A stretch of DNA of 26,741 bases, from positions 1-26,741 of the IMG/VR virus record IMGVR_UViG_3300043388_000009. One strand, given 5' to 3'. How positions within the stretch are numbered: position 1 is the first letter of the stretch; each line of letters opens with the position of its first letter. Origin of the DNA: a virus (lineage: Duplodnaviria; Caudoviricetes). The translations under genes and the position numbers were made by a program. The notes beneath the pieces were generated by a model that ran no database searches, had not been told where the DNA came from, and saw nothing but the letters and a program-made list of their open reading frames with translations. Shown here in pieces: positions 25,165 through 25,920 of this stretch.

Positions 25165-25200
25165 ACTCTAGCACACGTCCCCACATCTGCCTGCTACAGT
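25165..25200. promoter_or_regulatory. Back-to-back divergent extended -10 promoters
   Basis: Minus strand: TGTG-C-TAGAGT (box 25170-25165), 7 nt before ATG 25157. Plus strand: TG-C-TACAGT (box 25195-25200), facing the structured non-coding region. Confidence 0.6.
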
Positions 25201-25439
25201 AGGCCCGCTCGCTCAGCAGTGGTCCTCTGATGCACACTGCCATGGTCGCTGCGAAGCGGGCTAGAACTCACCCAGGCGCAGGGAAAGGTCACTTATCCCC
25301 GCACTAAGGCGAACAGGCCCGGAACCTCTCGGGGGACCGGAACCACTCGACCGAATGACCGGCTGTGGCCAGGCGGTCAGCCTGGGTGGGTTCTCCGAAA
25401 CCCCCTTGTGTTCCTAGCAACGACTCGGTACCTTTGACT

Positions 25440-25504
25440 GAGAGCCGCACGGTTGGGTGGAGGGGCTTCGGCCCCTGCGGGTTCGACTCCCGAGGCTCTT
25501 CTCA
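25440..25504 (+). ncRNA. tRNA-like element lacking an anticodon loop
   Basis: Acceptor GAGAGCC/GGCTCTT; D-like arm CAC-GGTTGG-GTG; AGGGGC-TTCG-GCCCCT in the anticodon position; T-arm CGGG-TTCGACT-CCCG. Confidence 0.65.
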
Positions 25505-25771
25505 GGACGACGACAGAAGGACACCCCCACCACATGGCATTCCACTCGCCATATCTCACAAACAGTTTGCGGTCTGCGGACCGTTGACTTCTCGGCCGGT
25601 CGATCGGGCGATGCCCTGGCGCTAGCCGGGCTACCCCTATCCGACCGACCTACCAAGGCCCCTGGCTGGTGAGTTAGCCTCCCCACCAACGTGGTCGTAG
25701 TGGCATCGCCTACCCAGGGGACCCTCTCAGTGTCCTACACTGGCAGCCGCCTCACAAGGGCGTGTTGAGTC

Positions 25772-25805
25772 CGTAGAAGGCCTCCCTTCGGGGGGGCCTT
25801 CTGCG
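25772..25805 (+). terminator. Strong hairpin, likely terminator (possibly bidirectional)
   Basis: CGTAGAAGGCCTCCC-TTCG-GGGGGGCCTTCTGCG, 15 bp with 2 G-U pairs. Confidence 0.75.
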
Positions 25806-25818
25806 TTACTGTGAGCCG

Positions 25819-25920
25819 ATGCTTGCAGCACTCTTGGCAGACGGTCTCTACATCGGTGGCGGCGTCCTCGTCCTCATCCTCATCATTCTGCTGGTCCTGA
25901 TCCTGCTGCGCCGGGCCTAG
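25819..25920 (+). CDS. 33-aa single-TM membrane peptide
   Basis: MLAALLADGLYIGGGVLVLILIILLVLILLRRA*; ATG 6 nt after TACTGT; GC3-rich codons; its TAG overlaps the helicase TAG. Confidence 0.7.
   Translation: MLAALLADGLYIGGGVLVLILIILLVLILLRRA

Follow-up and report, generated by a model that had tools for sequence, protein, structure and literature searches.

Bacterial and phage Y RNAs, among them YrlA (RF02553), Yrn1 of D. radiodurans and Yrl1/Yrl2 of phage phiLo, carry a tRNA-like domain with a canonical T loop. In Yrn1 this domain runs in the order D-loop, five-pair short-loop stem, T arm (PMC4201824, in part), and in YrlA in the order T-AS-D. Ro60 of the Thermus phage phiLo together with the Yrl RNAs binds host PNPase, as do the Yrl RNAs alone, and the phiLo Ro60/Yrl RNAs lower PNPase activity in vitro (PMC12135203, in part). 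Large, multi-domain, pseudoknotted RNAs of unknown role (GOLLD, ROOL, OLE and raiA) form another group of described systems. GOLLD and ROOL are phage-borne and are homo-oligomers by cryo-EM, and GOLLD can embed tRNAs (PMC12286853, in part).

Here we describe a locus of about 600 nt in a 26.7-kb phage fragment (26,741 nt, the whole stretch of DNA analysed, hereafter the window; its record is 23% complete). Its RNA shares with Y RNAs the tRNA-like domain with a canonical T loop, in the D-hairpin-T order of Yrn1 instead of that of YrlA. Unlike Y RNAs, it has no terminal Ro60 stem and no GNCGAAN0-1G motif (0 matches in the window and in its homolog L033), is five times longer and carries a kissing-loop junction, homologs of which sit in or near Y arrays and Ro60 genes. 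It is large, multi-domain and pseudoknotted as GOLLD, ROOL, OLE and raiA are, but its conserved core is just ~130 nt, moves as a separate gene and has no Rfam match. The locus is very probably a functional structured RNA, apparently an uncatalogued, phage-borne one; the feature is real, yet composite and not one indivisible fold.

Setting, ends and strand of the locus

The tail, lysin, RecA, DNA polymerase I and helicase genes of the window all lie on the minus strand. Its closest annotated relatives are Streptomyces phages (~40% helicase identity), so an actinobacterial host is likely. The RNA lies in a non-coding gap bounded by the helicase stop (25917) and a 158-aa gene (ATG 25157), and inspection of the ORF list by eye agreed with the first-pass annotation that this is the only large gap in the window. 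The label 'Gam-like', which that annotation gave to the 158-aa gene, had to be dropped: the gene matched no Pfam or PHROG family, and its Atlas clusters are hypothetical only. Across relatives the length of the gap between these two genes ranges from 15 to 763 nt, with G018 and G051 reaching several kb; it is empty or contains small ORFs or RNA-like elements, and judged from this comparison it is a cargo site. The features of the locus, in window coordinates, are as follows.

25165..25173, minus: extended -10 box lying 7 nt ahead of the ATG of the divergent 158-aa gene
25192..25200, plus: extended -10 box of the RNA, TGCTACAGT, identical in L033
25205..25262, plus: domain I, an irregular 5' hairpin (z -2.55; 2/54 bases differ in L033)
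25263..25394, plus: four-way junction module P1-P4 (P1 is 25263-77/25380-94; covariation in 10 versions)
25287-92/25365-70, plus: kissing helix of loop 2 with loop 4 (6/6 pairs in the window and in L033)
25306..25353, plus: arm P3, with a Y-like 3' strand and, in its 5' strand, GNCGAA without the rest of the Y motif
25422-31/25762-71, plus: possible long-range helix (two-sequence consensus fold)
25440..25500, plus: tRNA-elbow unit (tRNA-Sec model, E 0.14; core identical in L033)
25534-52, 25564-89, 25598-646, 25659-720, 25728-42 and 25748-62, plus: 3' hairpins of the region 25534..25771 (two-sequence consensus fold)
25772..25805, plus: 15-pair end hairpin, a likely terminator with a short U tail (z -5.55)
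25819-25920, plus: 33-aa hydrophobic ORF (element 25807..25920; TAnnnT box 6 nt before its ATG)

Both predicted ends of the RNA lie where they had been proposed, with the extended -10 box on one side and the 15-bp UUCG hairpin on the other, and the RNA is predicted to start near 25207. The pattern TGnTAnnnT occurs just five times in 53 kb (both strands of the window), and two of the five sites stand back to back, at 25173 (minus) and 25192 (plus). The same box lies upstream of the junction module in all four versions with a long P3, and TAnnnT stands 7-8 nt ahead of P1 in four of the six other versions (background 0.0009 per site). The mRNA of the 158-aa gene is likely leaderless, because its -10 box ends 7 nt before the ATG. 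All 12 tested pairs of the end hairpin are kept in L033; a terminator scan made no call at 25772-25805. The 5' hairpin, which had been drawn from 25202 to 25262, stands from 25205 onwards, whereas its first pairs (25202-04) precede the likely start and are not conserved. As a separate observation, a few minus-strand extended -10 boxes (25165-25173, 18637, 14042, 7509) may mark phage transcription units.

The whole region folded better than its shuffles on either strand (20 each; z -3.65 on plus, -2.87 on minus), the minus-strand minimum free energy (MFE) is the lower (-289.5 vs -283.1 on plus), and 120-nt windows gave weak z-scores that favour minus. Since these local windows are weak and point to the minus strand, folding energy alone is no proof of strand or function. 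The earlier assignment to the plus strand thus does not follow from energy, but it is upheld by the promoter, the T loop, conserved G-U pairs and the UNCG loop of the end hairpin (UUCG in the window, UACG in L033).

A search of Rfam with the RNA region returned zero matches at the gathering score and chance-level matches alone at E up to 10, none of them to a riboswitch or ribozyme family. ARAGORN called 0 genes in the region, and the covariance models of GOLLD, ROOL, OLE and raiA gave no match. The first-pass annotation had likewise found no match to tmRNA, RNase P or a riboswitch, and its description of a structured plus-strand RNA of no Rfam family is borne out by these negatives together with strong covariation in the 5' module. 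No match to the RNA was found by blastn among annotated phages and plasmids, nor to the homolog L277 among phages. Several identities were discarded: raiA (0 covariance-model matches at E up to 10), an HDV-like ribozyme (the required helix order is absent by eye) and a protein-coding reading, as 10 of the 11 indels within the RNA between the window and L033 are not multiples of three and break the frame.

Two other occupants of the same slot were seen in relatives. A conserved ~130-aa basic protein, encoded on the helicase strand, fills it in one clade (L021, L023, L024, L025, L288, L294). In L012 (3850-3960, minus) and L014 (3870-3965, minus; both approximate) the slot holds a different RNA of ~100 nt with two hairpins, the loops of which are complementary and appear to covary between both phages; neither the module models nor Rfam matched it.

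The junction module, the tRNA-like unit and the 3' half

The multiloop closed by a 15-bp helix is present as first proposed, P1 being kept 15/15 in L033; the pairing of loop 2 with loop 4 and the modularity of this domain had been overlooked. An alignment of ten versions of the module showed 97% of cells paired and double changes in 18 of 27 pairs, a value reached by 0 of 500 shuffles, with slid controls at 40-55%; the 27 pairs were picked from the alignment itself, which favours these counts, and P3 was omitted as too variable. The four core kissing pairs are kept in 10/10 sequences, three of them with double changes, and the alignment contains conserved G-U pairs and invariant junction bases. 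P4 has three consecutive double changes between the window and L033. The ten versions include two subgroups of the same layout. In the first (window, L033, L009, L273) 92% of cells are paired and double changes are seen in 10 of 42 pairs, two of them among the six pairs of the loop 2/loop 4 helix; in the second (L015, L045, L277, L281) the values are 97% and 15 of 38, with four of the 15 double changes in the loop-loop helix.

The subgroups also detected one another. A covariance model of the second, short subgroup ranked window positions 25260-25394 first (26.4 bits, E 8e-4; next 12.4), gave E 0.02 for L033 and E 0.9 for L009, and did not detect L273; an HMM built from sequence alone on the same subgroup missed the window module. 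Conversely, with the model of the long subgroup E was 3e-7 for L277 and 0.07 for L045, and L015 and L281 scored near chance. Both models recovered two further members, L022 and G022. Together, covariation and cross-detection show the secondary structure of the module and its loop-loop pairing. At 110-150 nt it is a compact, strongly covarying fold without an Rfam family, small enough for immediate probing and structure work.

The module occurs without the 3' half in 8/10 versions; in L009 and L273 it is the counterpart of 25263-25394 that recurs in this way. It runs into the convergent helicase stop in three of the ten (L015, L045, L273) and into an end hairpin in two (L009, L277). The earlier comparison with one large ornate RNA of the GOLLD/ROOL kind is not borne out, given this distribution and a 3' half known from one informative homolog. 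A combined model matched 8 of 54 virus records, every one in this phage clade, and gave no match in the near-complete relatives G001, G002 and G027. Mapped onto a helicase tree (33 rows), the module requires nine changes, not fewer than with shuffled labels, although 'absent' labels on fragmentary records may be wrong. Descriptor searches added little: among 90 stretches of viral contigs fitting the junction pattern the homologs were just the four already known, and the P1 pattern found four known viral loci and one chance genome match. The short-subgroup pattern gave 12 viral matches, six of them true and one of these a new record nearly identical to L281, and four matches in genomes, none true. 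In 151 genomes of the class to which G042 belongs, model R3 had no match among the 22 candidates scored per genome. By these searches the module is shown to stand alone, patchily spread, within one phage clade. Among the titles and abstract openings searched, most subscription papers lying outside that search, none describes the module; the searched part of the supplements of PMC10690425 makes no mention of it, and their remainder may bear on its novelty.

The tRNA-like unit that had been noted was found at 25440-25500. It has an acceptor-like stem (7 pairs in the window), an open D-like loop, a five-pair UUCG hairpin in place of the anticodon arm, and a T arm, and it has no CCA. Its core shows 0 differences in 57 bases in L033 (p 3e-4), which shows purifying selection on the unit; L033 and contig X1 both lack pairing at the second position of the acceptor stem, and the elbow is invariant. 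The tRNA-like fold differs from the MFE fold. With a 4-nt UUCG loop, no D stem and 21.4 bits in the tRNA-Sec model against a cut-off of 47, the unit falls outside tRNAs.

The tRNA-like domain of tmRNA comprises an acceptor stem, a stemless D loop, a helix replacing the anticodon arm and a T arm, and tmRNA is identified by a G3-U70 pair, a CCA end and a message domain. The window unit has the same layout, but its helix is capped by UUCG, its third pair is G-C and not G-U, and CCA and message domain are absent; with 0 matches from ARAGORN and Rfam, tmRNA was rejected. The 4-pair T stem is shared with 8/4 allo-tRNAs, and an 8/4 reading is possible if a G-A pair is counted, whereas the unit lacks their D stem and anticodon loop (PMC5389517, in part). 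A T-arm pattern fitted 119 stretches from 35 of the 64 parts of the collection, the only homologous one being the window's own copy, and a D-loop pattern had one chance match in genomes.

Comparable units were noticed elsewhere. The unrelated phages L237 (285-360, minus) and L246 (270-350, plus) each have a small unit of D-loop, hairpin and T arm; as in the window, its 4-pair T stem has a G-A at the base, and neither record has TROVE. In L162, L176 and L252 (match near 901 or 301) there are tRNA-like genes within tRNA arrays in which a long insert replaces the anticodon arm and which ARAGORN missed.

The long form of the RNA is known from one narrow lineage only: two near-identical contigs, contig X1 (over 661 bases, 20 differences and 6 gap positions) and L033. 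The window and L033 differ at 78 of 595 positions in the RNA and, for comparison, at 34 of 120 four-fold sites of the helicase gene (p 9e-5); in the 3' hairpin region they differ at 43 of 271, set against the same 34 of 120. The hairpin at 25564-89 contains one double change, C-G to U-A at 25570/25583, and one change in X1 that breaks a pair at 25572. That at 25728-42 keeps one of five pairs in L033 as aligned, and a shorter stem remains by eye. A domain closed by a helix of 25606-15 with 25702-11 had been proposed; 7/10 pairs are kept in L033, forcing the helix costs 14.5 kcal/mol relative to two hairpins, and the two separate hairpins form in both homologs, so the closing helix was rejected as not conserved and energetically worse. 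The evidence for the 3' half is thin, coming from one informative homolog, L033.

Ro60 and Y-RNA arrays in related phages

A Ro60/Y-RNA context had gone unconsidered in the first-pass annotation. G022 has a Ro60 gene, with TROVE and vWA_Ro60 matches, immediately preceded by an array of six Y-RNA units, and the module sits within this array, flanked by units 4 and 5. One Y unit of the array has tRNA-like cargo in the D-hairpin-T order seen in the window. Module, Y array and Ro60 all occupy the helicase/158-aa slot in G018 and G051, on the same strand. Of 38 distinct records searched, five had TROVE, each time preceded by 4-6 canonical Y stems (26 in all), and four of these five records also carry the module. 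These comparisons show that the module moves as accessory cargo and sometimes joins Y arrays. Its location in such an array ties an orphan fold to the question of how phage Ro60/Y systems function.

The link to Ro60 is suggestive and loose. Among 18 close relatives of at least 25 kb, hand-picked with shorter and more distant records dropped, Ro60 is present in 4/7 module-positive vs 1/11 module-negative records (p 0.047). The link is loose because the co-occurrence falls to 3/6 vs 1/9 (p 0.24) with near-copies collapsed, because G004 and G005 have the module and no Ro60, both known Ro60 slots being covered, and because G020 has Ro60 and no module match. Y RNAs are marked by a same-strand Ro60 gene no more than about 4 kb away. 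No Ro60 was found among the 27 window ORFs or in the near-identical G015 and G052; the sequence ends ~1.9 kb rightward.

We compared the RNA itself with Y RNAs. A matrix of the Y 3' strand, built from 26 units, has its top match in the window within P3, at 17.1 bits (next 11.6; median of true units 15.0). The matrix of the 5' strand reaches at best -0.4 in the RNA vs at least 18.9 for the 26 true units. Predicted folds contain no end-to-end stem with a bulged Ro60 helix, P3 is without the bulged C, and YrlA (RF02553) had 0 matches in the RNA at E up to 10, the same model scoring 31.7 bits on the G022 array. With the 5' Ro60-binding strand and the terminal stem absent and no YrlA match, a canonical Y RNA was rejected; most plausibly, by analogy, the RNA works like the effector half of a Y RNA, yet fails Y-RNA membership.

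The Y arrays upstream of TROVE (L382-L386; 4-6 canonical Y stems per array, 26 units) differ in their tRNA-like cargo, some of which is permuted and some not. Those scored with the YrlA model stay under its cut-off, and the ceN72 model from nematodes gives partial matches to the arrays.

Possible workings of the locus

We give a probability of about 40% to the reading that the locus produces a trans-acting decoy or scaffold RNA for host RNA-decay or tRNA-binding proteins, alongside the Ro60/Y systems of its relatives. Transcription of the plus-strand cassette would begin at the extended -10 box, stop at the end hairpin and give a non-coding RNA in which a kissing-loop four-way junction is joined to a mimic of the tRNA elbow. 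Closure of P1 and the kissing loops may yield, through tertiary folding, a compact nuclease-resistant body, and the D-loop/T-loop elbow could then occupy an elbow-reading host protein or PNPase. With its anticodon loop and CCA end missing, such an elbow could be neither cut nor charged at these places, and with PNPase or the elbow reader occupied, decay of phage RNA would be damped; the in vitro findings reported for phiLo Ro60 and its Yrl RNAs are the precedent. Covariation, cross-detection, promoter boxes, selection, the Y-array context and the Y-like strand of P3 speak for a decoy or scaffold; weak Ro60 co-occurrence, the missing 5' Ro60 strand, a tRNA fold that is not the MFE, the D-hairpin-T units of L237 and L246 without TROVE, the pair-breaking change in X1 and the single informative 3' homolog speak against it. 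The long form would be well suited for testing whether an anti-host decoy can be made of a tRNA elbow that has neither anticodon nor CCA. More tentatively, and on balance doubtful, the locus may belong to a new mobile class of phage RNA, in which the kissing-loop junction travels alone, inserts into Y-RNA arrays and has here absorbed a tRNA elbow and a Y-stem remnant to become a protein-free decoy that needs no Ro60 and neutralises either host RNA decay or a defence aimed at tRNAs, perhaps as an oligomer linked through its loops.

Some of the same observations can be read in other ways. The 600 nt might be a precursor cut into small RNAs, the tRNA-like unit being an RNase P/Z mark that frees the module from the 3' domain. 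The module does stand alone in 8/10 versions, the linkers (72% A+C) resemble Y-array spacers (67%), and a stem of this kind, acceptor-like and of 7 pairs, is associated with cutting of M. smegmatis YrlA by RNase P (PMC4201824, in part); but the second acceptor pair is disrupted in L033 and X1, in contrast to the invariant elbow, and CCA is lacking, so we consider processing of this kind rather unlikely. As regards its products it is compatible with the decoy or scaffold explanation. Still less likely, the complementary loops could pair between molecules to build a ring or cage, by analogy with the homo-oligomers of GOLLD and ROOL seen by cryo-EM (PMC12286853, in part). Loop complementarity in 10/10 versions would suit such an assembly, covariation being blind to intra- vs intermolecular pairing, whereas the position of both loops on one junction at fixed spacing fits an intramolecular contact, and the lack of the module in the near-complete G001, G002 and G027 means that it is no essential packaging RNA.

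That the RNA is a divergent Y RNA, bound through P3 by a Ro60 encoded beyond the contig end or in the host, seems improbable: P3 has the Y-like 3' strand and GNCGAA, and in three relatives Ro60 lies on the helicase side at a distance of ~6-12 kb, a position beyond the end of this contig, but the 5' matrix stays at -0.4 against at least 18.9, the bulged C and a YrlA match are missing, P3 is the most variable arm, and short members are without the motif. An equally poor candidate is a role in cis, as the ligand-sensing leader of the 33-aa membrane peptide or as a self-cleaving ribozyme trimming arrays. A hairpin does lie upstream of the small ORF, an ATG directly follows the module in G018 and G051, and the junction with its invariant bases is riboswitch-like; against this, a separate -10 box precedes the small ORF in both homologs, at a spacing of 6 nt, neither riboswitch nor ribozyme families matched, and no same-strand gene lies consistently downstream of the module, which meets the convergent helicase stop in 3/10 versions and an end hairpin in 2/10 and sits inside a Y array in one. 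Weak local folding z-scores and the patchy spread would be expected of a silent or decaying relic or of a DNA-level element, an explanation that the double changes, conserved G-U pairs, UNCG loops, T loop, promoter boxes and divergence below that of four-fold sites render very improbable.

The 33-aa ORF next to the end hairpin had been overlooked. It is likely leaderless and separate from the RNA, judging by its upstream sequence, and it belongs to no Pfam or PHROG family. Its C-terminus is basic and its frame is kept in L033, and the slots of L273 and L024 hold similar small hydrophobic ORFs.
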